The position numbers were made by a program, and so were the translations under genes. The notes under the pieces are model-generated. The model was not told where the DNA came from. It worked only from the letters and a program-made list of their open reading frames with translations, and ran no database searches. 27,082 bases of DNA, from assembly GCA_964397495.1 (NCBI GenBank), contig CAYNIO010000001.1, positions 1-27,082 on the forward strand, given 5' to 3'. Below are positions 578 to 19,076 of the stretch, piece by piece. How positions within the stretch are numbered: the stretch's first letter is position 1; each line of letters opens with the position of its first letter. The DNA comes from an uncultured Planctomycetia bacterium. GTDB taxonomy: Bacteria > Omnitrophota > Gorgyraeia > Duberdicusellales > CBEUCJ01.

Positions 578-2275
578 CTATTCCTCAGTAGTTATCCTTA
601 CTACTTCCTCTAAAGTAGTAATTCCCTCAAAACATTTTTTTAGAGCGTCGTCTCTCAAAAGTTTCATACCTTTCCTTTCGACAGCGTAATTCCTTACATC
701 GTCGGAAGAAGCACCCTTTATAATCATCTCCCGAATGTGGTCGTCTATCTCCAGGCATTCTAAAAGCGGGACCCTGCCATGATAACCAGTCATATTGCAA
801 TACTCACACCCCTTGCCACAATAGAAAACCTGATTCTTAGGAAGGTCTCTTATGTCTAACCTTTTTAAAACTAAATCTGAGACCTTGTAAGGCTGTTTGC
901 ACTTGGGGCATATCTTCCTTGCTAACCGCTGGGCCGTAACCAGGATTAATGAAGACGCCACCAAAAATGGCTCTATACCCATATCTTCCAATCTGGTTAT
1001 GGCCCCACAGGAATCGTTGGTGTGGAGTGTAGAAAGAATTAAAGTGCCTGTAAGCGAAGCTTTGATAGCGATATCTGCAGTTTCTGAATCCCTTATCTCC
1101 CCCACAAGAATAATATCTGGGCTCTGCCTCAATACTGCCCTTAAACCCTGGGCAAAGGTAAGACCGATTTCAGGCTTTACCTGAATCTGAGTTATACCTT
1201 CTATCTGGTACTCCACAGGATCCTCAATGGTAATAATATTGCGGTCCGGGGTATTCAACTGCTGAATTATAGAATAAAGAGTGGTGGATTTCCCGCTGCC
1301 GGTGGGGCCGGTAACTAAAATTATCCCATAAGGCTTCTTGATAGCCTCTTGAAAGATGCTCAAAGGCTCAGGGGAAAAACCTAACTTGTCTAAACCTATG
1401 GAAAGATTGCCTTTGTCTAAAGCGCGCAATACGAATTTTTCTCCAAATATAGAAGGGAGGCTTGAAACCCTGAAGTCAACCTCTCTATTCTCCATTTTTA
1501 CCTTAAACCTTCCATCCTGAGGTATGCGGCTCTCTGTAATATCTAAACCAGACATAATTTTAAGGCGGGCAATGACTGCATTTTGATTGCTTTTGGGAAG
1601 GTTGTAAGCTTGATGCAAAGCCCCATCTATCCTGTAGCGCACAATTAAAGAATCTTCTTTAGGCTCAATATGGATATCAGAAACCCTCCTGCGTAACCCC
1701 TCGTAAAGTATCAAATCCACCAGTTTAACAATAGGCGCCCTCTCACTTTCCTTTATAGCTTCAAATACATCGAGTTCTTCAGCCTCTACCACCTCTACCC
1801 CAGAGTCTTGAGAACCCAAGCCCTTGATAATCTCTGAAAAGGGAGTATCTTGGGCAGAGTATAACTTGCTTAAGAAACTCTGAATATCAGACGAGGGAGC
1901 AAGGACAAACTCTACCCTTCTTCCGGTAGATATATAAAGGTCGTCTATAGTCTGGATATCAAAAGGATTTGAAGTTGCTACCATTATCAAATCTTTATCT
2001 AATTTAAGAGGGCAGATATTATGCTTAAAAGCAAGTTCGGAAGGAAAGATATCCTTTAATTCCGGAGAAACTTCCAAATCCCTTAAATCTACATAACTAA
2101 ACCCAAAAACTTCCGCTACTATCTTCAGAAAATCCTCTTCAGAAAACAAACCTTCCTTCACCAAGGCCTGCTTAAGGTCTCGATAGGAATAAATCTTGTC
2201 TATAAGTTCTATCTTCCTGGATTCCACTCCTTTATCCTGAAGAATTTTCTTAATCTTTTCCTTTAATTTATTCAT
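578..2275 (-). CDS. pilB: Type IV pilus / type II secretion assembly ATPase (PilB/GspE family), copy 2
   Basis: SDIHIEP, PQDGRF, Walker A GPTGSGKST, TIEDPVEY, Walker B PDIILVGEIRD, His box STLHTND, zinc motif CPKC...CEYC, GYHGR. Start overlaps the upstream stop (ATGA). Confidence 0.93.
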   Translation of the reverse strand: MNKLKEKIKKILQDKGVESRKIELIDKIYSYRDLKQALVKEGLFSEEDFLKIVAEVFGFSYVDLRDLEVSPELKDIFPSELAFKHNICPLKLDKDLIMVATSNPFDIQTIDDLYISTGRRVEFVLAPSSDIQSFLSKLYSAQDTPFSEIIKGLGSQDSGVEVVEAEELDVFEAIKESERAPIVKLVDLILYEGLRRRVSDIHIEPKEDSLIVRYRIDGALHQAYNLPKSNQNAVIARLKIMSGLDITESRIPQDGRFKVKMENREVDFRVSSLPSIFGEKFVLRALDKGNLSIGLDKLGFSPEPLSIFQEAIKKPYGIILVTGPTGSGKSTTLYSIIQQLNTPDRNIITIEDPVEYQIEGITQIQVKPEIGLTFAQGLRAVLRQSPDIILVGEIRDSETADIAIKASLTGTLILSTLHTNDSCGAITRLEDMGIEPFLVASSLILVTAQRLARKICPKCKQPYKVSDLVLKRLDIRDLPKNQVFYCGKGCEYCNMTGYHGRVPLLECLEIDDHIREMIIKGASSDDVRNYAVERKGMKLLRDDALKKCFEGITTLEEVVRITTEE

Positions 2276-3978
2276 AATGGTTCATCAGGGGCAGTACTTT
2301 TTACTACCTCATCTAAAGACGTTATGCCCTTAACCACTTTGAGCAATCCGTCCTCCCTGAGGGTACGCATCCCTTCAAGCCGGCCTTGTTTTTTTATCTC
2401 ATATTCCTGGGCTCCTTTTAGGACCAGTTTTTTTATCTGGGGAGACAAAAAAAGAACCTCGCATATTCCAATCCTCCCCCTGTAGCCTGTATTCAAACAA
2501 TACCTGCACCCCTTTGGCCTGAAAACCTTCAAGTTATGATTTCTAGATTCCTTAAAACCTAAGCGGGAAACAATATCTGGGGAGAGCACATATTCTTCCT
2601 TGCAATGTTCGCACAATCTCCTCACCAGACGCTGGGCTAAAACCCCCACCAGAGTAGAAGTCAGAAGATAAGACTCCGCCCCCATGTTCACCAATCTTAT
2701 TATCGCTCCTGGAGCGGTGGTAGTGTGGATTGTAGAAAGCAAAAGATGGCCTGTTAAAGCAGCCTTTATAGAAATGTCCAGAGTATCGTAATCTCTTATT
2801 TCTCCTACCATAATGATGTCTGGGTCCTGCCTCAATATAGAACGCAGGGCACTGGCGAAGGTTAACCCTACCTCTGTATTTACATTCACTTGAGTCACCG
2901 TATCTATCTGGTATTCTACCGGGTCCTCAACAGTTATGAGATTTTTCTCGGGGTCGTCTACAAATTTAAGTATGGAATAAAGGGATGTGGTCTTGCCGCT
3001 CCCTGAAGGGCCACAGACAAGTATCATGCCGTGGGGCCGGGAAGCACATTTTTTTATCACCTCTAAAGAATCGTCCTCAAATCCTAAGCGGTCTAAATCT
3101 AGAAGGGCCTGTGACCTGTCCAGAATTCTTAGGGCTACCTTCTCTCCGAAACTTGAAGGTATGCAGGAAACTCTAAAATCTACAATCCTGCCCGAAATTC
3201 TTGCTTTGAACCTTCCATCTTGGGGGAGGCGGTGCTCAGCAATATCTAAATTAGAAAGAACCTTGATACGGGTTACCATATAAGGATGGGTAGCCTTGGG
3301 AGGAGATTCCACCTCCTGCAATACCCCATCTATCCTGAATCTTATCCTTAATCTTTTTTCTAAGGGCTCAATGAGTATGTCTGATGCGCGGGAATCCACT
3401 GCCCTCTTTAGAAGGCTGTCTGTGAATTTAACAATCGGCGCTTCCTCTACAGTCCTTTCTATAACCTCATTTTTTCCTCCAGAAACAATTTCCAAATCTG
3501 GCTTGGAAATATTATCTATAAGATTCTCTATAATCTGACCTGTTTTCTGCTCATAAAGGGTAGATATTTTCTCCTTTATTTCATCAGAACTTGAGATGAT
3601 AGGATTTATCTCAAGGCCTGTAATTTGCCTGAGGTCATCTAAAGCAAATATATTCAAAGGGTCAGAGGTTGCCACAGTAAGGGTTCTGCCAATCTTCGCC
3701 AGAGGAAGAATCTCGTATTTTTTAATAAAGTCAACGGGTATTATCTTAGAAAGGCTGTCATCTATCTTAAAACGGGAAATCTTTAAAAGAGGTATGCCCA
3801 AACCATAACTTAAAGCCAACATAAGGTCTTTTTCGTGAATTAACCCCATCTTCACCAAGATGTGCGAAAGGGAGCCCCCATTCTCCTTCTGGAATCTCAA
3901 AGCATTTTCTAAGTCTTGCACAGAGACCAACTTGTTTTCTACCAAAAAATTCTTCAACTTCTCCTGAAGGGGAATCAT
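2272..3978 (-). CDS. pilB: Type IV pilus / type II secretion assembly ATPase (PilB/GspE family), copy 1
   Basis: SDILIEP, PQDGRF, Walker A GPSGSGKTT, TVEDPVEY, Walker B PDIIMVGEIRD, STIHTTT, CEHC...CRYC, GYRGR. Start overlaps the upstream stop (ATGA). Confidence 0.93.
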   Translation of the reverse strand: MIPLQEKLKNFLVENKLVSVQDLENALRFQKENGGSLSHILVKMGLIHEKDLMLALSYGLGIPLLKISRFKIDDSLSKIIPVDFIKKYEILPLAKIGRTLTVATSDPLNIFALDDLRQITGLEINPIISSSDEIKEKISTLYEQKTGQIIENLIDNISKPDLEIVSGGKNEVIERTVEEAPIVKFTDSLLKRAVDSRASDILIEPLEKRLRIRFRIDGVLQEVESPPKATHPYMVTRIKVLSNLDIAEHRLPQDGRFKARISGRIVDFRVSCIPSSFGEKVALRILDRSQALLDLDRLGFEDDSLEVIKKCASRPHGMILVCGPSGSGKTTSLYSILKFVDDPEKNLITVEDPVEYQIDTVTQVNVNTEVGLTFASALRSILRQDPDIIMVGEIRDYDTLDISIKAALTGHLLLSTIHTTTAPGAIIRLVNMGAESYLLTSTLVGVLAQRLVRRLCEHCKEEYVLSPDIVSRLGFKESRNHNLKVFRPKGCRYCLNTGYRGRIGICEVLFLSPQIKKLVLKGAQEYEIKKQGRLEGMRTLREDGLLKVVKGITSLDEVVKSTAPDEPL

Positions 3979-4448
3979 CTTTTTGCTTCCAGGGATTCTT
4001 TGCCTTGAGGAAAATACTTCTCCAGGGCCCTTCTATACTCTGATTCTGTGCAGATAAATATTTGCAAGTCCAAACCTGTTTCTTCTTCAACCCTCCCTAA
4101 ACTCTCCCTGTCCAAAGGGTCAGGGGTAGCACAGATAAGAATTTTTCCCACTATATCTATAGGAATTACTTTGTATTTGTAAGGAAGGTGGTAAGGAAAT
4201 TCTTTAACCACCCTCTCTTCAATCTCATAATTATCTAAAGGCAAGTAAGGGAAGCCGTACTGCAGAGAAATAGCGTATACAATATCTTCCTCCTTAATAA
4301 AACCTAAGGAGACTAAAATTTTGCCAATAGGGTCCTTGCTCTGTTTTTGGACCTGGAGGGCTTCTCTTACCTGCTCTTTTTTCAGTACCCCAGCCTCTAC
4401 AAGAATCTCTCCCAGCGGTTTCTCTATAACCTTTTTTATAAAAACCAT
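3975..4448 (-). CDS. Stand-alone MshEN / GspE N-terminal domain protein (candidate c-di-GMP receptor)
   Basis: Two 24-residue MshEN-type motifs separated by 5 residues (PLGEILVEAGVLKKEQVREALQVQ-KQSKD-PIGKILVSLGFIKEEDIVYAISLQ), then a GspE-N-like region (YGFPYL...VIPI...ATPDPLD). No ATPase domain. ATG at 4448 is preferred over the track's TTG at 4451. Confidence 0.85.
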   Translation of the reverse strand: MVFIKKVIEKPLGEILVEAGVLKKEQVREALQVQKQSKDPIGKILVSLGFIKEEDIVYAISLQYGFPYLPLDNYEIEERVVKEFPYHLPYKYKVIPIDIVGKILICATPDPLDRESLGRVEEETGLDLQIFICTESEYRRALEKYFPQGKESLEAKR

Positions 4449-4456
4449 CAATTAAA

Positions 4457-4513: not shown

Positions 4514-6178
4514 TCAATGGGGGGCGAATATTACATGGCTCCATGGCAGGCTGTCACCCTGAGATTTGCTCTGAATATATTCTTCTGGAGGAAGGGAATG
4601 TTTCTTGCAGACACTCAACAAGTCTTTATGTTCCTGCAAGGTGAAAGAAAAATTACGCAGCGGTCCTTTATTTGCGTAAACTTCTACTAAAAAGGGAGCA
4701 ACCCTGCGGTCTGAACGGGAAAGAAACGCTTCCCAAAAACTTTTATAGGGATTGTGAAAATCCCAAACGATATTCTTGAAAACTTTGAGGTTATTTTTAA
4801 AGAAATGGTGTTTGCGCAATAAAGAATCTATGGAATCTAAAGAGACGTTCTCTAAAGGGGTGAAGGGCTTGGGTATAAAATTAGAAAAACTAAGGTGTAG
4901 TTTAAAGTTCTTTCCTTTAATAAGGCGCCCCAAAGAAACAATAAAATCAAGCGTTTGGATAAGGTCATCGTCTTCTTCTTGAGGCAGGCCTAAAATAAAA
5001 TAAAGCTTAAGGGTGCGGTATCTGTAATCCAGGGCAAATCTCAAAACTTCTCTAATCTGACCCAAAGGTATCACCTTGTCTATTAACTTGGCAAGGCGTA
5101 AGGAACAGGTTTCTGGAGCCAGGGTAAGGGATGTCCTTTTTATGCGAGAAATTTTTTTTCCAAGACTGCCCAAGATTTGAGAAACCCTCAGCGAAGGCAG
5201 GCTTATACTGACACCTTTGTCTTTAAACATATCTGTAAGGGAATCTATTATCTGTTCTATGCAGGGGTGGTCTCCTGAAGACAAAGACAATAGGGCAATC
5301 TCTTCATACCCTGTAGCACGAAATAATCTTGAGGCTAAATCAATGATTTTCTCTTTGCTTCTTAACCGCCAGGGAAAATATTGACTTCTAGCCTGACAAA
5401 ATTTGCATCGGTGAGGACAACCTCTCATAATCTCTAAAGAGATTCTGTCGTGGACTATCTCTATATAGGGAACTAACCAATCCTCAGGGAAAAAACAATT
5501 ATCTAAATCCTGAACCGCAGCCTTTTTAATAGAGGAAGGTACATACCTTGCGGACCTCTCCAGCCCTTTAAATCTCCCTCCCTGGTAAAGAGGCTGGTAG
5601 AAACTGGGGATATATACGCCCTCTATTTGAGATAGCCTAAGCAGAAGTTCCTCCTTGGAACTCTTCCTTAAATCTTTCTTTAGGACTTCTGTTATGTGCC
5701 TTAGGCTTTTTTCAGCCTCTCCTATAAAAACGACGTCTGCAAAATCTGCTACAAATTCAGGGTTGGCAATACCCCCTACCATCACCAGAGGAAACCCACG
5801 TCTTTCAGCACTCAGAAGAGGAATTCCTGAAAGTTTAAGGATGTGCAATAAGTTAAATACGTTTAATTCATAATTTAAGGTAAACCCTAGAACATCAAAA
5901 TCCTTTAAAGGAATTCTACCCTTAAGAGAGCGCAAAGGACCTGTTTTTAAGAAAATATCCTAATAATCCTGATAAGGCAGGAAACACCTGTCTACAAAAA
6001 CACCTTCTGCTGTCTGTAGCAAACCATAAACTATCCTAAAACCTAAATTGCTCATTCCCAATTCATAACTCTCAGGAAAACACAAACAGACCTTAAGAGC
6101 GTTGGAATTTAGGGTTCTGCCTTTATCATTCCACTCGTGATTTATATAACGGGCAGGTTTGGATACCTTGACAAGCAT
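4514..6178 (-). pseudogene. TIGR03960-like radical SAM protein interrupted by one in-frame TAG (5960-5962); pseudogene, sequence error or readthrough
   Basis: Track ORFs 5960..6178 and 4514..5935 are in the same frame: ...RCFLPYQDY*DIFLKTGPLRSLKGRIPLKDFDVLGFTLNYELN. The N-terminus has family-like motifs KPARY, FPESYELGMSNLG; downstream are RGCPHRCKFC (CxxxCxxC), SLPSLR, LTLAPE, KLYFILGLP, FIPKPFTP and LPWSHV. The start overlaps the rodA stop (TGATG). Location after rodA fits this family. Confidence 0.8.
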
Positions 6179-7263: not shown

Positions 7264-8959
7264 CCAGCAACCCCTCTTCTCTAAGAGACTTTAAAAAACT
7301 ATGGGCTGTTTTGCAAGCAAAGAAACTTGAGCCTCCGTGTTCAAGAAACACCACAAATACGTACCTGGGCTTCTTGTAAGGAAAAAAACCTGCAACCCAG
7401 GAATGAGGCGCTCTGTTAGTTTGAGCAGTCCCTGTCTTAGCGCATATCTTCAACTTTAAATCTTCGAGGATATGGGCAGTCCCTCCTTTGTCTCTCACCG
7501 CTCTTCTCATACCATCCCTTACCGTATCCAGATTAACTCTCGAGGCCTCAAGCGTCTCCTGCTGGGAAGGCTCTATGTCTAATGTCCCAATTCTCCTTAT
7601 TATATAAGGCTTGCTAAATCTACCCTGAGCCAATGAGGAAACCATTCTGTAGACCTGCAGGGGTGTAGTTAAAACCCAGCCCTGGCCTATGCTGAGATTG
7701 CAGGTATCTCCCTTAGTCCAACTCCTCCTTAAGGAAAACTGCTTCCATTCCGGGCTGGGCAAGAACCCTGCAGAAGAAGGGAAATACGAAAATACTCTCC
7801 TGCCTAATCCTAACATATGCGCATATTTTAAAATTCTTTGAGGCCCCAGGAGTAAACCCACGTTGTAGAAAAAAACATTACAGGAATTCTTTAAAGCCTC
7901 CCTCACATCCTGAAGACCATGCCTCATCCAACATTTAAAGGTCTGTTGCCCCACAAGAAACTCACCCGGGCAGAAAAACTGTGTTTTATCTGTAATTACT
8001 GACTCTTCTAAACCTGCGGTAGCCACCACCAACTTAAATATTGAACCAGGAGGATACCTCCCCTGCAGTGCCCTGTTATAAAGAGGGGCGTCCAGACTTC
8101 TCAGAACCTTATTTATATAAGAAGAATTTCTTTGTGTAAATTTCTGGGAGTCGAATCCAGGAAAAGAAACTAAAGCTAAAATCTCTCCCTGGGGCCTGCC
8201 AAAGATTATACAACCCTTTTTTCCTTTGAGGGCTTGGAAAGCCAACCTCTGAATATCTACATTTAAGGTAAGTTCGATGTCATTCCCCTTCAGAGGATAC
8301 TTTACCTGCAGCGTCCTGATTTTGTGCGAAGAAGCGTCCACTATAATTATGCGGCCTCCGTCCTTGCCCCTCAAATATTCATCGTAGTATTTTTCTAATC
8401 CCAAATGCCCAATTCTGCGAGGAGGGCTAAGGCCGTATTTCTTAAACAAGAAATATTCCTCCTTGGTAGTATAACCTACATATCCTACCAAATTAGAGAA
8501 TTCATAAGGATAGTGATAGTAACGCCTGAACCTGCGTATAATACCCAAACCCTTAATCCTATAAAGATTTCTTTTTATCTCCTGCAACTCTTTCCTTGAG
8601 AGTTCGTCTTTAAGGACTACGGGCAGAAAACGGGAGACAAAATTCCTTTTGTAGAGCCTTTTCAAAGAAAAGGCGTCAACCTCTAAAAGCAAGGAAACCT
8701 CTTTAAAGAAATACTGAAGATTTTTTACCTCCTGGGGATAAACTACACAGGAATAAATCTGGACATCTTCAGCGATGGGGCGGTTGTGACGATCAAGAAT
8801 TCTTCCCCGCTTCGCAGGCAGGGAAACTACCTTAAGATAATTCCCTGAAGATATAACCCGGTAATAATTAAAATCTTTTACCTGTAAAGACCAGAGGCCA
8901 GCGATTATTGCCAGGAATACAAAAAAACATATAATCCAGAGTCTTCTCTCAACGGACAT
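7253..8959 (-). CDS. mrdA: Penicillin-binding protein 2 (class B PBP)
   Basis: N-terminal TM anchor, RGRILDR, transpeptidase motifs SxxK (PGSIFK), SxN (SCN) and KTG (AKTGT); lies between mreB and rodA. Confidence 0.93.
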   Translation of the reverse strand: MSVERRLWIICFFVFLAIIAGLWSLQVKDFNYYRVISSGNYLKVVSLPAKRGRILDRHNRPIAEDVQIYSCVVYPQEVKNLQYFFKEVSLLLEVDAFSLKRLYKRNFVSRFLPVVLKDELSRKELQEIKRNLYRIKGLGIIRRFRRYYHYPYEFSNLVGYVGYTTKEEYFLFKKYGLSPPRRIGHLGLEKYYDEYLRGKDGGRIIIVDASSHKIRTLQVKYPLKGNDIELTLNVDIQRLAFQALKGKKGCIIFGRPQGEILALVSFPGFDSQKFTQRNSSYINKVLRSLDAPLYNRALQGRYPPGSIFKLVVATAGLEESVITDKTQFFCPGEFLVGQQTFKCWMRHGLQDVREALKNSCNVFFYNVGLLLGPQRILKYAHMLGLGRRVFSYFPSSAGFLPSPEWKQFSLRRSWTKGDTCNLSIGQGWVLTTPLQVYRMVSSLAQGRFSKPYIIRRIGTLDIEPSQQETLEASRVNLDTVRDGMRRAVRDKGGTAHILEDLKLKICAKTGTAQTNRAPHSWVAGFFPYKKPRYVFVVFLEHGGSSFFACKTAHSFLKSLREEGLLDEE

Positions 8960-9011
8960 CTATAAAATGAAAAATTTTATGAATGGATATCTTAAATAGG
9001 AAGGATGTATT

Positions 9012-10097
9012 TTATCCTTCTCCGCGTGAGGCAACTATCAGTCTCTTCAGGTACCCAAACTCCTCCAGGACTTTGCCTGTGCCTAAGGCTACAGCAGTTA
9101 TGGGGTCATCGGCTACAAATACAGGCAGACCCGTCTCTTGTGCTAAGAGTTTATCCAGCCCTCTTAAAAGAGAACCCCCTCCTGCCAAGACTATTCCCCT
9201 CTCAATCAAATCTGCAGCCAACTCTGGAGGAGTCCTTTCTAAAGTAATTTTGGTAGCTTCTATAATTTCCCTTATGGGAGACTCCAAAGCCTCCCTCACC
9301 TCTTGAGAGGTTATCTTTACATGTTTGGGCAGACCCACAATTAAATCTCTCCCCTTAACCTCCATCTCCATCTCTTCCTCCTGAGGGTAGGCTGAACCTA
9401 TTTTTATCTTTATCTCCTCAGCAGTACGTTCGCCTATCATAAGGTTATAGTTTTTCTTCATATATTCAATTATGGCTTCGTCCATCTCGTCTCCGCCTAT
9501 CCTTATAGATTTAGCAAATACTATACCCCCTAGAGAAATGACTGCAATCTCAGTGGTGCCTCCACCGATATCAATAATCATACACCCTGTTGGCTCCTCA
9601 ATGGGAAGACCCACACCTATGGCTCCTGCTAAAGGCTCTTCAATCCAGAAGACGTCTCTGGCACCTGCTTTAAAAGCAGACTCTTTGACTGCGCGCTTCT
9701 CCACCTCGGTTATCCCCGAGGGGATAGCGATTACCATTCTGGGCCTCCCCGAAAACCTTCCAGGATTAACCTTCTTTATAAAATAGCGGAGCATCTTTTC
9801 TGAAATATCAAAATCCGCTATAACTCCGTCTTTCATAGGCCTTATAGCCACAATGCTACCTGGTGTTTTTCCCAGCATACGTTTGGCTTCGGCCCCCACT
9901 GCCAGAACGTTATTGGTTCCCTTCTGTATGGCTACCACTGAAGGCTCGCATAAGGCTATACCTTGGTTCTTAACGTAGATAAGCGTGGTGGCTGTGCCTA
10001 AATCTACGCCTATATCGTTAGAGAAGAGACCTAGAATCTTATCGCTTACTCTAGTGAATCTTTCTTTTAACTGAGAGGTAAGATTTAAAGGCATCAT
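9012..10097 (-). CDS. mreB: Rod shape-determining actin homologue MreB
   Basis: [56 protein letters not shown]. Start could be either of two tandem ATGs (10097 or 10094). Confidence 0.97.
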
Positions 10098-13330: not shown

Positions 13331-16108
13331 CTAAAAATCCTTGTCCTCAAGGACTAAGACACACCGTTGGCAAATATCAGGAAAATCTTTATTGTTGCCT
13401 ACAGTAGTTGAATAATTCCAGCACCTTAAACATTTCTTGCCTTGAGCGCGTTCTACAATTATATCCAAAGTCTCAGCCTTTTCAAGTTTAACAGAAGAGA
13501 CGATAAAAATCCACTCTAAATTCGTATTTATATCTCTTAAAAAATTATAAAACCCTAAGGGGGCTTTAATAACAAGGGAAGCCTCCAGAGACGAGCCTAT
13601 CAACCCTTGCTGGCGCTTCTCCTCAAGGGCCTTGGTAACTTGGTCCCTAAATTCAAAAAGAAGTTTATTGTATTTATTTAAAATTTCCTCATTTTTAAAG
13701 ACTGAATCGAGTTCTATCCAGGAACTTAAAAAAACAGAGTCTTCTTTTTCCAAACCCAAGTTTTTAGCCGCCCTGAAAGCCTCTTCAGCGGTGAAACTTA
13801 AAATGGGAGAGAGCACTCTGGTAAAGAATTTTATAAGGTAGTAAAGCACGCTCTGGGCAGAACGCCTGGGCCTGCCTTCCTTTCTTAAAGTGTAAAGTCT
13901 GTCCTTAAGGATATCGAAATAAATATTGCTTAAGTCCACTACGCAGAATTTGTAAATATCTTGATAAACTTTAAAAAAGGCATAATCCTCATAAAAACCC
14001 TCTATCCTCTCAAGAATTTGGCAAAGGCGGGATAAAGCCCATTTGTCTATCTCCAAAAGTTGCCGGTAGTCTAAAACGTCCTGGGGAGAAAAATCATAGA
14101 GATTGCCTAAAATAAATCTCAAGGTATTCCTTATCTTCCTGTAAGACTCTACCACCTGAGAAACAATGTGAGGAGACATCTTGACATCCTGATGGTAGTC
14201 AGAAAAACATGCCCAGAGTCTGAGAATCTCTGCCCCGTAACCTTTTACCACCTCCTGAGGTGAAACTACATTCCCTAAGGATTTGGACATCTTCCTCCCC
14301 TTCTCGTCAACCACAAATCCGTGAGTTAAAACCTCTCTGTAAGGAGGTCCTTTGCCTATGCCTATCGCAGGAATTAAAGAAACCTGAAACCAGCCTCGAT
14401 GCTGGTCCGAGCCTTCAAGATACAAATCTGCGGGGAAACCCAAGTTATTATCGCTCATCAACACTGCGTAAAAACTCGCCCCTGACTCAAACCATACATC
14501 CAAAATATCGCCCTGCTTCCTGAAAGACTTTCCTGAACAATGCTTGCAAGAATAACCTGCAGGCAACAATTCCTCTTCAGTTCTTGAAAAATAGATATCG
14601 CTCCCCTCTTTCTCCACCAAATCTGCTAAATGCAAGATAATCTCCTTCTCTATAATAATTCTTTTGCAGTTTTCGCACCTAAATACAGGAAGAGGCACTC
14701 CCCACAGCCTCTGCCTTGAAAGGCACCAATGAGGACGCAATTCAACCATAGAAGATATACGCTCTTTACCCGATGAGGGAACCCACCTCACCTGCGATAT
14801 GGCTTTTAATACCTTATCTCTTAAATCTTTATGGTCGACATCGAAAAAATATTGGTAGGTAGCGCGAAATATTATAGGGTTTTTGCATCTCCAGCAAAAA
14901 GGATAACTGTGGACAATCTTCTCCTCATAAAGAAGCAAACCCCTCTCCTTAAGTATGGCTATGATGAGGGGGTTAGAAGCATAAACATCTTTCCCTTTCA
15001 GGAGTTGGGGCACATAATCATCGTCTTTAAATCTGCCTTCATCATTTACAGGAACGAGTACCTCAAGGTTATACTTCTTGCCTATCTGGAAATCTTCCTC
15101 TCCATGCCCAGGGGCAATATGTACTATGCCTGTACCCTCCTCGCCAGAGACAAAATCTGCAAGAATTACTCTAGAATCCCTGGAAATAAAGGGGTGTTCA
15201 AGCAAGGCGCCTTCCAAATCTCTGCCTCTAAAATCTTGAATAACTTTATAAGTCTTAAGGGAAAGTTTGTCTAAAAGAGGATGGATTAAATCCCTGGCCA
15301 AAACCATCTTTTTAATCTTTCCTTCCAATTCTACCTCTATAAGGCAATAGGATAAATTGGGATTTACTGCGCAAGCCACATTCCCCAACAAGGTCCAAGG
15401 AGTTGTGGTCCATACTGCAAAATATAAATCCTCTGAAGGCAACCCTGCGGGCATATCCTTAACAGGGAAGAGTATGTATATCGAAGGCGACTCCTTGTCA
15501 TAATATTCCACCTCTGCTTCTGCCAGAGCAGTCTGGCAACTCTTACACCAGTTTACAGGCTTAAGGTCTCTGTAAATATATCCCTCCTGCGCCAAAAGGG
15601 AAAACAACCTCAATACCTGGGCTTCATATTTCCTGTCCAAAGTAAGATAAGGATTCTCCCAATCTGCAAATATTCCCAGCCTTTTAAAATCCTCCCTCTG
15701 AATATTTACAAATTTTAAGGCATAATCTTTAGCCATCTTTCTAAACTCTAAAATCTCAACTTGGGCCTTATCTTTGTTTATCTCCTTAAATAACTGATGT
15801 TCCACAGGGAGACCGTGGCAATCCCAGCCTGGCTTCATATACACTCTAAAGCCCTTAAGAGACTTATACTTAAGAACTATATCCTTTAAGATTTTATTGA
15901 GAGCATGACCTATGTGTATAGGGCCATTGGCATACGGCGGGCCATCGTGAAGGACAAACTTTGGAGAATCCTTATTCTTCTTTAACATCCTCTCGTAGAC
16001 ATACCCCTCTTTCCAGAAGGAAAGAAATTGAGGCTCCTTTTTGCTAAGGTTGGCCTTCATAGAAAAATCGGTCTGGGGAAGATTGAGAGTAGAACGCCAG
16101 TCTTTCAT
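13331..16108 (-). CDS. ileS: Isoleucine--tRNA ligase (bacterial type 1)
   Basis: HDGPPYANGPIHIGH, WDCHGLPVE, WTTTPWT, GTGIVHIAPGHG, WCLSRQRLWG, EGSDQHRGWF, KMSKS, C-terminal CLRC...CQRC. Confidence 0.98.
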   Translation of the reverse strand: MKDWRSTLNLPQTDFSMKANLSKKEPQFLSFWKEGYVYERMLKKNKDSPKFVLHDGPPYANGPIHIGHALNKILKDIVLKYKSLKGFRVYMKPGWDCHGLPVEHQLFKEINKDKAQVEILEFRKMAKDYALKFVNIQREDFKRLGIFADWENPYLTLDRKYEAQVLRLFSLLAQEGYIYRDLKPVNWCKSCQTALAEAEVEYYDKESPSIYILFPVKDMPAGLPSEDLYFAVWTTTPWTLLGNVACAVNPNLSYCLIEVELEGKIKKMVLARDLIHPLLDKLSLKTYKVIQDFRGRDLEGALLEHPFISRDSRVILADFVSGEEGTGIVHIAPGHGEEDFQIGKKYNLEVLVPVNDEGRFKDDDYVPQLLKGKDVYASNPLIIAILKERGLLLYEEKIVHSYPFCWRCKNPIIFRATYQYFFDVDHKDLRDKVLKAISQVRWVPSSGKERISSMVELRPHWCLSRQRLWGVPLPVFRCENCKRIIIEKEIILHLADLVEKEGSDIYFSRTEEELLPAGYSCKHCSGKSFRKQGDILDVWFESGASFYAVLMSDNNLGFPADLYLEGSDQHRGWFQVSLIPAIGIGKGPPYREVLTHGFVVDEKGRKMSKSLGNVVSPQEVVKGYGAEILRLWACFSDYHQDVKMSPHIVSQVVESYRKIRNTLRFILGNLYDFSPQDVLDYRQLLEIDKWALSRLCQILERIEGFYEDYAFFKVYQDIYKFCVVDLSNIYFDILKDRLYTLRKEGRPRRSAQSVLYYLIKFFTRVLSPILSFTAEEAFRAAKNLGLEKEDSVFLSSWIELDSVFKNEEILNKYNKLLFEFRDQVTKALEEKRQQGLIGSSLEASLVIKAPLGFYNFLRDINTNLEWIFIVSSVKLEKAETLDIIVERAQGKKCLRCWNYSTTVGNNKDFPDICQRCVLVLEDKDF

Positions 16109-16971
16109 TAAAGGTACCTTTCTATTATGGGTCTGAGTTTTTTCTTGAGTTTTGGAGGAATAAGGTGTTTAGGTGTTACGATGCTATCCCTCAAGGCATC
16201 CTTGCAACTGCAGGTCCTCTCTTCAGGAATCTTAGGTATGAGCGCCTTGAGTATCTTTTTGGCATTCTTAATATTCTTCAAGAGGTTGTCAACTACCATC
16301 TGGGCAGTAACCTCTTCATGGTGGGGATGCCAACAGTCATAGTCTGTAACTGCAGCCAGAGTAACATAACACATCTCTGCCTCGCGGGCTAACTTTGCCT
16401 CAGCGAGGTTAGTCATACCAATGATATCAAACCCCATCTTCCTGTAGAATTGGGACTCAGCCAAAGTAGAAAATTGAGGACCTTCCATATTTACGTATAC
16501 CCCTCCCATATGCACACCTACTCCTGCCTCCCTACAGGATTCATAGACTATGCTTCTAAGTTCGCTACATACAGGTTGAGAAAATCCTACATGGACCACG
16601 CAGCCCTTTTCTAAGAAGAAACTGCATTGACGCCCAGAATTGGTACGGTCAAAGAACTGGTCAGGGATAACAAAATCCAGAGGCTTCAGTTCCTCCTTTA
16701 AACTACCACAGGCAGAGACAGAAATAATCCTCTCCACACCCAACATCTTAAAGGCGCAGATATTAGCCTGAAAATTTAAACTTGTAGGAGGAATTTTATG
16801 GCCGCGGCCATGACGAGGCAGAAAGGCCAATTTTCTTCCCTCTAATTCTCCAATAACTATACTATCGGATGGCCTGCCAAAAGGAGTATTAACATTTATT
16901 CTGCGTCTTTTCTTAAGGCCCTCTATCTCATAAAGACCACTTCCGCCAATTATACCAATCTTCACCTTCAT
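16108..16971 (-). CDS. mtnP: S-methyl-5'-thioadenosine phosphorylase (MTAP)
   Basis: GIIGGSGLY, LPRHGRGH, VSACGSL, PDQFFD, EGPQFSTLAES, IGMT...EAKLAREA, VTDYDCW. Stop overlaps the ileS start (TAATG). Confidence 0.93.
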   Translation of the reverse strand: MKVKIGIIGGSGLYEIEGLKKRRRINVNTPFGRPSDSIVIGELEGRKLAFLPRHGRGHKIPPTSLNFQANICAFKMLGVERIISVSACGSLKEELKPLDFVIPDQFFDRTNSGRQCSFFLEKGCVVHVGFSQPVCSELRSIVYESCREAGVGVHMGGVYVNMEGPQFSTLAESQFYRKMGFDIIGMTNLAEAKLAREAEMCYVTLAAVTDYDCWHPHHEEVTAQMVVDNLLKNIKNAKKILKALIPKIPEERTCSCKDALRDSIVTPKHLIPPKLKKKLRPIIERYL

Positions 16972-17780
16972 CTCCCCAACCTCCTAGATAATTCTTTAGC
17001 CCTTAAATAAGCCTGCCTTAAGGCCTGCTTGTATATACTCTTAAGAGCATATCTTTCAAAAGTCTTCAGAGCCCTCTCAGTAGTCCCCTTTTTAGAGGCT
17101 ACGCTCTTTATCAATCTTGAAGTATCAAAATCAGAATCCTTCAAAATCTCTAAACTTGCAAGAAAAGTCTGGTAAAGAAGTTTAACACAAATTTCTCTGC
17201 CCAGTCCTAGAGAGCGACCTGCCTCAAGAAGAGATTCGAATACATAAAATATGTAGGCCGGCCCACTCCCTGAAAGGGCGGTAATTTTGTCTACATCTAT
17301 TTCTTTAACCCTAATACATAACCCGAAACTCTTCAAAACACTTAGGGCCATCTTCTCATCATTCGCATTGCAATTCCTGCCCAAAGAGTAAACGCTAGCA
17401 GATTTTCCAATCTTAGTTCCCAGATTAGGCATAACTCTGACTACAGGTTTATCCTTAAGATATTTTTCAAGAAAATTTAAACTTACTCCAGCAGCAATAC
17501 TTATAAAAATTATCCTTCTGGAAGGAAGGTGCTTCCTTATGTCCCCAAGGAGCATTCTTAAATCCTGGGGTTTTACACACAAAATTACTACCCTGCAAGT
17601 CGAAAGTATTTGGTTTACATTTTTAGCAAGAATTACCCTATACCTTTTTTGGCACTGTCTTGCCTTTAGAATATCGGTATCATAACCTATTATTCTAGTC
17701 TTAGAAAAATTGCGCCTTAAGGCGTGGGCAATCGACGAACCCATATTCCCTAAACCTATTATCCCTATAGCATATCTCAT
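16968..17780 (-). CDS. proC: Pyrroline-5-carboxylate reductase
   Basis: GIIGLGNMG, VKPQ, ISIAAG, VRVMPN, TALSGSGPAY, VASKKGTT; SD GAGG 7 nt upstream of the ATG. Confidence 0.95.
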   Translation of the reverse strand: MRYAIGIIGLGNMGSSIAHALRRNFSKTRIIGYDTDILKARQCQKRYRVILAKNVNQILSTCRVVILCVKPQDLRMLLGDIRKHLPSRRIIFISIAAGVSLNFLEKYLKDKPVVRVMPNLGTKIGKSASVYSLGRNCNANDEKMALSVLKSFGLCIRVKEIDVDKITALSGSGPAYIFYVFESLLEAGRSLGLGREICVKLLYQTFLASLEILKDSDFDTSRLIKSVASKKGTTERALKTFERYALKSIYKQALRQAYLRAKELSRRLGR

Positions 17781-17789
17781 TTGAGTGCC

Positions 17790-17873
17790 TCAAAAATCTA
17801 AAAACTCGGTAAGAATATCTGCTAATTTTAAACTATCTGGGCTTTTAATGCAATGGAAAAGTTGCAGCGCTGT
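17790..17873 (-). pseudogene. yggS: Putative remnant of yggS (PLP homeostasis protein)
   Basis: The intergenic frame reads *TALQLFHCIKSPDSLKLADILTEFLDF*, resembling the YggS core motif as I recall it (roughly AVxLFDxIHSVDSLxLAxEI), at the position just upstream of proC where yggS often sits. There is no start codon and it is flanked by stops. It overlaps a promoter-like motif, so the resemblance could be chance. Confidence 0.5.
17825..17853 (-). promoter_or_regulatory. Sigma70-type promoter for proC-mtnP-ileS-dksA-lspA-rluD
   Basis: Minus strand TTGCAT (17853-17848), 17-nt spacer, TAAAAT (17830-17825); about 40 nt of leader with an SD before proC. Confidence 0.6.
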
Positions 17874-17915
17874 TTAAGGGCCCTGCAAACTCTAAGGAAT
17901 ATTAGATTTTAGGCA

Positions 17916-19076
17916 CTAGAGGTATTCCTGATAGAGGGCTTTTAGAAATCTTATCGCCCTGCCCAGTCCTTTGTCTGGTGTTTTTTGGGAAAGGGAAAAA
18001 TTGTATTTAGCACACCCCAAGGAAGACAATTCGTGGGAAGGTGCAGGATTCTGCAAAACAACTAATTCTGCGCCGGGTTCAAACAAAGAACCAAAATACC
18101 TTCTCAAGCCCTTGGTAAGAGCCACCCCGCCGCATAGATAAATATTACTTCTTAAAAAAGACGAAAGGCTATCCTGCTGGAAACAATTTTTAAGGGAACA
18201 AACAAATTCCTTTAAAGGTTCTTCTATAATCTTGGTTATATCTCTAACCTTATAGGAAAGGTAATCATCCCCTATCTTCAGCATTAGTTCTTCATTCTCC
18301 GAAGCATTAAAATCTAAAAAATCTTGGCGTATCCTCTGGCAAAGTTCCAAAGAAACCTCTAAACTCTGGGACATCTTTATATCTAAATCGGCGCCGCCAA
18401 AATCCAGAAGGTATCTTTTAATAATCCTATTATCCCTGAATACTAAAACTTCGGTAAGCTTCTCTCCCATATCAATCAGCACCCCTTCTTTAAAACTTCT
18501 CTCCGCAGCCACATAACTTGCGTAAGACGAACTGAGCAAACCTTTAAGGTCTCTTCCTAGATATTCAAAAAGTTTGCGTAAGTTGTCATAGAAACTTACA
18601 TTGCACAGAAAGAGCATAAATTCTCCGCCCAAACTCCTGGCCCACAAGCCCTGGGGCTCATATATCCTCTGGGACTCATCCACAAGAAAATATTGAGGTA
18701 TGCTTAGAAGGAGTTTCTGATCCCAACTTCTTCCCAGAAGGGAAGACTGTTCCTTAAGATATTCAACATCACGCCTGTTTATAAGTCTCTCTTTTTCAGA
18801 GGTGAGAGCAAACTTAAAAAATGAATTCTTTACAACAATATGCTTACTCTTTAAACAACAAACTAAACTATCTATCTGGAAAGAGGTCTTTTTTTCAGCC
18901 TCAGAAAAAATCTTATCCAAAAATTCTACTAATCCATAAAAATCCTTTACTACGCCCCCATCTATATGGGGAGAACTAAAACTCTCAAGATAGAACATAT
19001 CTGATGGAGTTTTTATTCCACAGAGAGAAATTTTGGAAGAGCCCAACTCCAGACCCCAATACACCCTCTTGCTCAT
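17916..19076 (-). CDS. ftsA: Cell division protein FtsA (divergent)
   Basis: GLELGSSKI, IDGGVVKD, SHS2-like IPQYFLVDE...PQG, LIDMGEKLTEV, FGGADLD, LCGGVAL, C-terminal amphipathic tail RAIRFLKALYQEYL; coupled to ftsQ (ATGA). Confidence 0.85.
   Translation of the reverse strand: MSKRVYWGLELGSSKISLCGIKTPSDMFYLESFSSPHIDGGVVKDFYGLVEFLDKIFSEAEKKTSFQIDSLVCCLKSKHIVVKNSFFKFALTSEKERLINRRDVEYLKEQSSLLGRSWDQKLLLSIPQYFLVDESQRIYEPQGLWARSLGGEFMLFLCNVSFYDNLRKLFEYLGRDLKGLLSSSYASYVAAERSFKEGVLIDMGEKLTEVLVFRDNRIIKRYLLDFGGADLDIKMSQSLEVSLELCQRIRQDFLDFNASENEELMLKIGDDYLSYKVRDITKIIEEPLKEFVCSLKNCFQQDSLSSFLRSNIYLCGGVALTKGLRRYFGSLFEPGAELVVLQNPAPSHELSSLGCAKYNFSLSQKTPDKGLGRAIRFLKALYQEYL

Follow-up and report, generated by a model that had tools for sequence, protein, structure and literature searches.

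Gene content of the ftsA-proC region

The window (the whole stretch of DNA analyzed here, 27,082 nucleotides) carries a minus-strand run of mraY, murD, ftsW, murG, murC, murB, ddl, a weak FtsQ-like ORF, and a divergent ftsA. Downstream of a noncoding gap follow proC, the gene for an MTAP-type phosphorylase, ileS, a dksA-like gene, lspA, rluD, murA, mreB, the gene for PBP2, and rodA. The features on both sides of the gap and within it are listed in Table 1.

Table 1. Features of the ftsA-proC region of the window
Feature	Positions	Strand	Remarks
IleS ORF	13331-16108	-	Gene identity checked
MTAP	16108-16971	-	TIGR01694, 308 bits (above cutoff)
proC (pyrroline-5-carboxylate reductase)	16968-17780	-	Heads the proC-MTAP-ileS-dksA-lspA-rluD block; TIGR00112, 218 bits (above cutoff); Pfam P5CR_dimer
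Noncoding ftsA-proC spacer, 135 bp	17781-17915	-	Slot occupied by yggS in other Omnitrophota
Inverted repeat, 3' arm (TTAGATTTTTGAGGCAC)	17784-17801	-	Includes the proC Shine-Dalgarno GAGG; repeat search
Shine-Dalgarno GAGG	17788-17791	-	7 nt upstream of the proC ATG; shares bases with the TGA closing the frame of the probable relic
Probable yggS relic, core of 21 codons (TALQLFHCIKSPDSLKLADIL)	17811-17873	-	YggS profile positions 89-109; hmmsearch, 8.0 bits
Promoter-like hexamers TTGCAT (17853-17848) and TAAAAT (17830-17825), 17 nt apart	17825-17853	-	Inside the probable relic
Possible upstream extension with two in-frame stops (SLQGP)	17874-17894	-	Exploratory; excluded from the evidence
Inverted repeat, 5' arm (GTGCCTAAAATCTAA)	17902-17917	-	Starts at the last base of the ftsA stop codon; repeat search
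Divergent ftsA, last gene of the dcw cluster	17916-19076	-	Pfam SHS2_FTSA, 28.6 bits; TIGR01174, 100 bits (below the 176-bit cutoff)

The FtsA encoded in the window is only 23 to 26% identical to the FtsA proteins of two other Omnitrophota loci (L169 and L086), and a word-based search of 5.8 billion proteins finds 2 distant homologues, the best with 26% identity. Its C-terminal ...YQEYL tail is similar to the ...YQEYF tail in L169. The homologues of ProC that carry source names come mostly from Omnitrophota, and in the IleS tree, the window falls within a well-supported clade that also includes loci L005 and L002 and is nested among Omnitrophota MAGs. The ftsA-proC junction is crossed by contigs from independent hydrothermal-vent metagenome runs, X1 (2018) with 0 differences and X4 (2025) with 1, so that it is not an assembly artefact.

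A single minus-strand frame is continuous from the ftsA stop codon (17916 to 17918) through the spacer to the proC ATG (17780). Translation of positions 17930 to 17781 gives QEYL*CLKSNIP*SLQGP*TALQLFHCIKSPDSLKLADILTEFLDF*GTQ (asterisks, stop codons), which confirms the initial annotation, where the spacer had been read as ...SLQGP*TALQLFHCIKSPDSLKLADILTEFLDF* in frame with both the ftsA stop and the proC start. The 27 stop-free codons at 17873 to 17793 are followed by a TGA (17792 to 17790) and include no in-frame ATG, GTG, or TTG; hence, this stretch is not an ORF. An Rfam search of positions 17000 to 18600 at E values of ≤1 yields two chance snoRNA-like matches only, indicating that no known riboswitch or leader is found in this interval.

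The whole spacer is bracketed by an inverted repeat of ~16 nt, whose arms pair in the predicted RNA fold. The minimum free energy of the spacer RNA is -34.7 kcal/mol, compared to -25.8 ± 3.8 kcal/mol for shuffled sequences (z score of -2.3), and a fold this stable is reached by 5 of 200 shuffles. The possibility that the spacer is a MITE-like mobile element with terminal inverted repeats was considered and rejected, as the arm has no further copy elsewhere in the window.

yggS between ftsA and proC in other Omnitrophota

YggS (PLPBP) proteins form a PLP-binding family (COG0325 and TIGR00044) with the fold-type III PLP barrel of Pfam family PF01168. A genome scan with a ProC alignment produced 80 loci, and a YggS ORF is found upstream of proC in 32 of them, including five Omnitrophota loci. 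The initial annotation states that yggS commonly precedes proC. Representatives of these 32 ORFs were confirmed as members of PF01168, and the identity of YggS in the Omnitrophota loci was confirmed with both PF01168 and TIGR00044.

The gene order is matched by L169, a 194-kb Omnitrophota contig that reads murC-murB-ddl-ftsQ-like-ftsA-yggS-proC-MTAP-ileS-dksA-like-lspA, i.e., the order of the window plus yggS. In L006, ftsA is followed by a 43-bp spacer, yggS, and proC, so that in both of these loci yggS lies exactly between ftsA and proC. L011 adds a PilZ gene (ftsA-PilZ-yggS-proC), and L170 and L023 have yggS-proC. With TIGR00044, for which the cutoff is 106 bits, the L169 YggS scores 186 bits, and the intact proteins of the relatives score 186 to 192 bits. 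The proC start lies 135 bp from the ftsA stop in the window, 810 bp away in L006, and 1191 bp away in L169. Three tandem units of ~111 nt (positions 4850 to 5160; ...gcctcgggagggaacctaaagattggcgaaggtaccctgtattttagcccggcgggttccac...) are found in the 393-bp spacer between ftsA and yggS of L169, after which, just before yggS, comes a consensus-like promoter, TTGACC-17-TATAAT.

Conservation of the yggS-proC pair extends to Pseudomonas and to many other phyla. In the window, the flanks of this arrangement are retained, whereas its yggS member appears to be reduced to a fragment.

Similarity of the spacer to YggS

A broad YggS HMM, built from the 32 sequences, was run with all filters off against the six frames of the gap. 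It matches the sense frame with 4.6 bits (HMM positions 94 to 115), aligning the consensus iaehfdwvhsvDrlkiaerlne with ALQLFHCIKSPDSLKLADILTE. This score is reached in any of the six frames by 9 of 5000 dinucleotide-preserving shuffles (by 1 on the sense strand) and by none of the 591 other 135-nt tiles of the window, the best of which attains 2.5 bits. With a closer HMM, made from the five Omnitrophota YggS sequences (L169, L170, L006, L011, and L023), the hmmsearch score of the gap is 8.0 bits (E value of 1.1e-4 for one sequence), and davaifdlihsvDslkLaeei is aligned with TALQLFHCIKSPDSLKLADIL at window positions 17873 to 17811. None of the 5000 shuffles (maximum, 6.9 bits) and none of the 591 other window tiles (maximum, 3.2 bits) reach this value. 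Among 3407 tiles of the Omnitrophota loci with yggS masked, one does; it lies inside a FabF gene and, at 10.5 bits, is a true false positive, showing that such scores can arise by chance. The other five frames of the gap score <0 bits with the YggS profiles, and the rest of the profile is unmatched in any frame. The YggS signal rises with the phylogenetic proximity of the profile, from 4.6 to 8.0 bits. The initial annotation had aligned a YggS motif with this place; both HMM alignments fall there, on the correct strand, and the gap scores better than shuffled sequence with either profile.

The peptide of the probable relic is identical at 8 to 11 of its 21 residues to four intact Omnitrophota YggS proteins, pairs of which share 5 to 14. 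In tblastn searches of the gap with single sequences, E values range from 0.2 to 1.8 and are not significant alone. When the whole window is searched with five YggS queries, the gap is the top match for those of L006 and L170 and the third-best match for two more, and its place and frame are constant across the queries. Other searches are silent. The peptide, with stops entered as X, has no match in Pfam or NCBIfam (hmmscan, E values of ≤10), as expected for so short a stretch given the filters and the correction for multiple models, and no match among PDB sequences (phmmer). Likewise, a DNA profile from the codon alignment of the five Omnitrophota yggS genes has no nhmmer match in positions 17600 to 18100, as expected from the divergence at this level. 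No YggS is found among the window ORFs of ≥90 aa scanned against Pfam.

For the two profiles, the empirical false-positive rate is ~3e-4 to 2e-3. The hypothesis was drawn from the tested sequence itself, and the nominal p value of ~3e-4 should therefore be discounted perhaps 25-fold, to roughly 1e-2 before synteny is considered; the factor assumes ~25 implicit looks, from a few gaps multiplied by a few neighbor families that might be expected.

A probable yggS relic

These profile statistics, together with a slot, strand, and neighbors that all predict yggS, suggest that the ftsA-proC spacer is probably a yggS relic, the remnant of a gene that other Omnitrophota keep at this place. Its 21 codons match the conserved segment that follows the HLQxNK motif of YggS, and the similarity exceeds that of both shuffled and real-sequence controls. 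An intact YggS would be an above-cutoff ORF of ~220 to 240 aa, compared to 27 stop-free codons without a start in the gap. The N-terminal region with the PLP-binding lysine and the C-terminal barrel strands are not present in any gap frame, and the fragment, which represents ~9% of the gene, cannot encode a YggS protein.

We infer that deletions totaling roughly 0.7 to 1.0 kb took out most of yggS, removing ~88 N-terminal and ~120 C-terminal codons and leaving behind the ~21 codons of the conserved DAVxIFDLIHSVDSLKLAxEI segment. As a mid-gene fragment, it would require at least two deletions, or many small ones, which counts against a relic. The remaining piece would be noncoding, with no start codon and with upstream stops at 17874 to 17876 and 17892 to 17894. 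It would have no YggS function, and the spacer would now simply harbor the ribosome-binding site of proC and possibly a weak promoter. The first of these stops, a TAA, aligns without gaps to a conserved Lys codon, and reading it as Lys raises the score to 11.2 bits; the LQ at 17883 to 17888 may correspond to that of HLQxNK if two codons were lost. Both of these readings were made after the fact.

Gene-decay relics are known from the intergenic spacers of streamlined or host-dependent bacteria, such as the pseudogene remnants of Rickettsia and Mycobacterium leprae. The window resembles these cases in having a short, frame-broken residual similarity in a spacer syntenic with a gene that is intact in relatives, but differs in being a single small relic in an uncultured vent member of the Omnitrophota. 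If the relic is real, it provides direct sequence evidence that yggS was deleted locally from this slot in a vent Omnitrophota lineage, rather than never having been present there, and dates the loss as later than the ftsA-yggS-proC arrangement that is common to the phylum. Apart from this, the case would be one of ordinary gene decay, with a known kind of remnant at the syntenic site, in a phylum that has been little studied.

Alternatively, yggS might have been lost or relocated cleanly, and one of the six frames of an AT-rich intergenic spacer happens to look like YggS. A chance resemblance of this kind appears unlikely. It would account for a match of just 21 codons, a length that itself counts against a relic, for the pairwise tblastn E values, for the silence of the library scans and the DNA profile, and for a FabF tile that scores higher than the gap; it also draws on the origin of the hypothesis in the same data and on clade-mates without yggS or a relic beside proC. 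Set against it are the low empirical false-positive rate with two profiles and the score that climbs with the closer one. Moreover, the gap is the top tile of ~590 and sits in the sole yggS slot predicted by synteny, on the predicted strand.

Nearest relatives and the timing of the loss

In the IleS tree, the window groups with L005, then with L002, as ((window, L005), L002), and this group is sister to (L099, L043). L012 branches next, as the sister of the window's clade, followed by the yggS-bearing lineages. The nearest relatives have IleS proteins 55 to 63% identical to that of the window and have no yggS at the proC site; yggS is absent next to proC in all five clade members, L005, L002, L087, L099, and L043. 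In L005, a chemoreceptor gene and a 316-bp gap are found upstream of proC. L087, a fragment known from ProC only, has a small membrane protein gene there. In L002, the contig has just 200 bp upstream of proC, which are noncoding, and each of three assemblies of this organism is interrupted no more than 200 bp from the gene on that side. AhpC-type and NAPRTase genes lie beside proC in L099 and L043. Within the clade, the ancestral adjacency of ftsA and proC is kept by the window only.

Searches for a YggS relic upstream of proC in L002, L087, and L005 give ≤1.6 bits, which is noise, and the gap shows no DNA homology to the upstream regions of these three loci (p values of 0.47, 0.20, and 0.76, respectively). 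Genome and metagenome scans revealed no closer relatives, the best metagenome match to the ProC alignment being 36% identical. The lack of yggS or of a relic beside proC in the nearest relatives was counted against a relic in the window. The upstream neighbor has changed in the clade-mates, and a breakpoint just before proC may simply have split proC from ftsA-yggS. The best fit is a loss of yggS on the branch leading to the window, after it had separated from L005. Had yggS been lost in the clade ancestor, a neutral relic would be expected to have faded.

The yggS gene of L012 (Omnitrophica bacterium 4484_49; positions 8705 to 9388) contains one in-frame TAA, at the position of the conserved Ala in the HS.D..LA motif (...HSLDRIEL*KEME...). 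Either this gene is a second yggS pseudogene, or the TAA is a sequencing error; the finding was counted in favor of the relic, as yggS decay elsewhere in this part of the phylum.

Absence of ftsZ after ftsA

In all four ftsA-bearing Omnitrophota loci (L006, L011, L086, and L169), the gene after ftsA is yggS, PilZ, or AhpC, never ftsZ, so that no local deletion of ftsZ is needed. A tblastn search with an FtsZ query from L034, confirmed by PF00091 and PF12327, detects no FtsZ, either in the window or in the Omnitrophota loci retrieved. To judge from these gene orders, the ancestor of the lineage already had ftsA followed directly by yggS, and the empty ftsZ slot is old and shared. As ftsZ is absent after ftsA phylum-wide in the sampled loci, the empty slot in the window does not speak for a recent ftsZ loss in this genome.

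The initial annotation had ascribed the gap to a deletion of ftsZ along with most of yggS. The yggS part of this proposal agrees with the profile and synteny data; the ftsZ part does not hold for the Omnitrophota loci. A single deletion that removed both would explain a window without ftsZ, and an order ftsA-ftsZ-...-yggS is found in many phyla (the actinomycetotal locus L034 has ftsZ-yggS-(170-aa ORF)-proC), yet the consistent absence of ftsZ after ftsA and of detectable FtsZ from the fetched loci makes such an event very improbable. Published surveys are at odds on FtsZ in Omnitrophota: one survey detected it in a single genome out of three (PMC5147048), whereas the dcw genes have been called highly conserved in this phylum (PMC12283558).

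A putative proC promoter in the probable relic

The hexamers TTGCAT-17-TAAAAT noted in the initial annotation are present as described on the minus strand and represent a possible proC promoter, for which the fragment might have been retained. They agree with the sigma-70-type consensus at 8 of 12 positions (3/6 and 5/6). Sites equal to or better than this are found in 24% of the gap shuffles and at ~2.9 per kb per strand in the window; the site falls below the threshold of the promoter scan and is not listed by it. TAAAAT derives from the AT-rich codons TTA AAA TTA (Leu-Lys-Leu), and the intact yggS genes of the relatives have nothing promoter-like at the homologous codons. A terminator scan after ftsA found none, and proC may thus simply be cotranscribed with the dcw genes.

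L002 and L087 share a clearly homologous promoter, TTGACA-17-TAATTT with a TG extension, just upstream of proC; the alignment score of their promoter regions is 243, compared to 72 ± 11 for shuffles. In each of the nearest relatives, a consensus TTGACA lies ~17 nt before TAAnTT just upstream of proC, at positions 140 to 200 of L002, 180 to 240 of L087, and 560 to 600 of L005.

In a special case of the relic interpretation, which does not add to the other explanations, selection would have kept the fragment as a putative sigma-70 promoter of a proC-MTAP-ileS operon, as the initial annotation had proposed. Both hexamers lie within the relic core, ~47 nt upstream of the proC ATG. A yggS promoter like that of L169 would have been deleted with the gene, making a replacement plausible; in L002 and L087, proC is directly preceded by a conserved promoter of its own, and no terminator was detected after ftsA. 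The pairing of the inverted-repeat arm at 17902 to 17917 with the Shine-Dalgarno region (fold z score of -2.3) can be read in the same sense. Nevertheless, the site is of a quality common in shuffled sequence and in the window and is uncalled by the scan, the homologous codons in intact yggS genes are not promoter-like, and no DNA homology links the gap to the conserved promoter of L002 and L087 (p values of 0.2 to 0.5). The sampled populations are ~99% identical, too alike to gauge conservation. Retention of the fragment as a promoter is therefore doubtful.

A further speculation is that, in the predicted fold, the helix formed by the repeat would cover the ribosome-binding site of proC on any transcript reading through from ftsA, and that a transcript beginning at the putative internal promoter would be without the 5' arm. 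A selected regulatory module, in which the yggS fragment supplies the putative proC-MTAP-ileS promoter and the repeat masks the ribosome-binding site on dcw read-through, appears less likely still. In that case, only promoter-initiated transcripts would be translated, and the expression of proline and isoleucyl-tRNA synthetase genes would be uncoupled from that of the cell division genes.

Other features of the window

The spacing between mreB and the PBP2 gene is only 52 bp (positions 8960 to 9011). At this site, the relative L002 has mreC (PF04085) and a 124-aa ORF, which indicates that mreC and mreD are missing from the slot in the window, a second local gene loss in the contig. Two tandem full-length genes for T2SSE/PilB-type ATPases, of 565 and 568 aa, are found at positions 578 to 4451. 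They are preceded by a 158-aa ORF that contains the N-terminal MshEN domain only and may be a truncated third copy.
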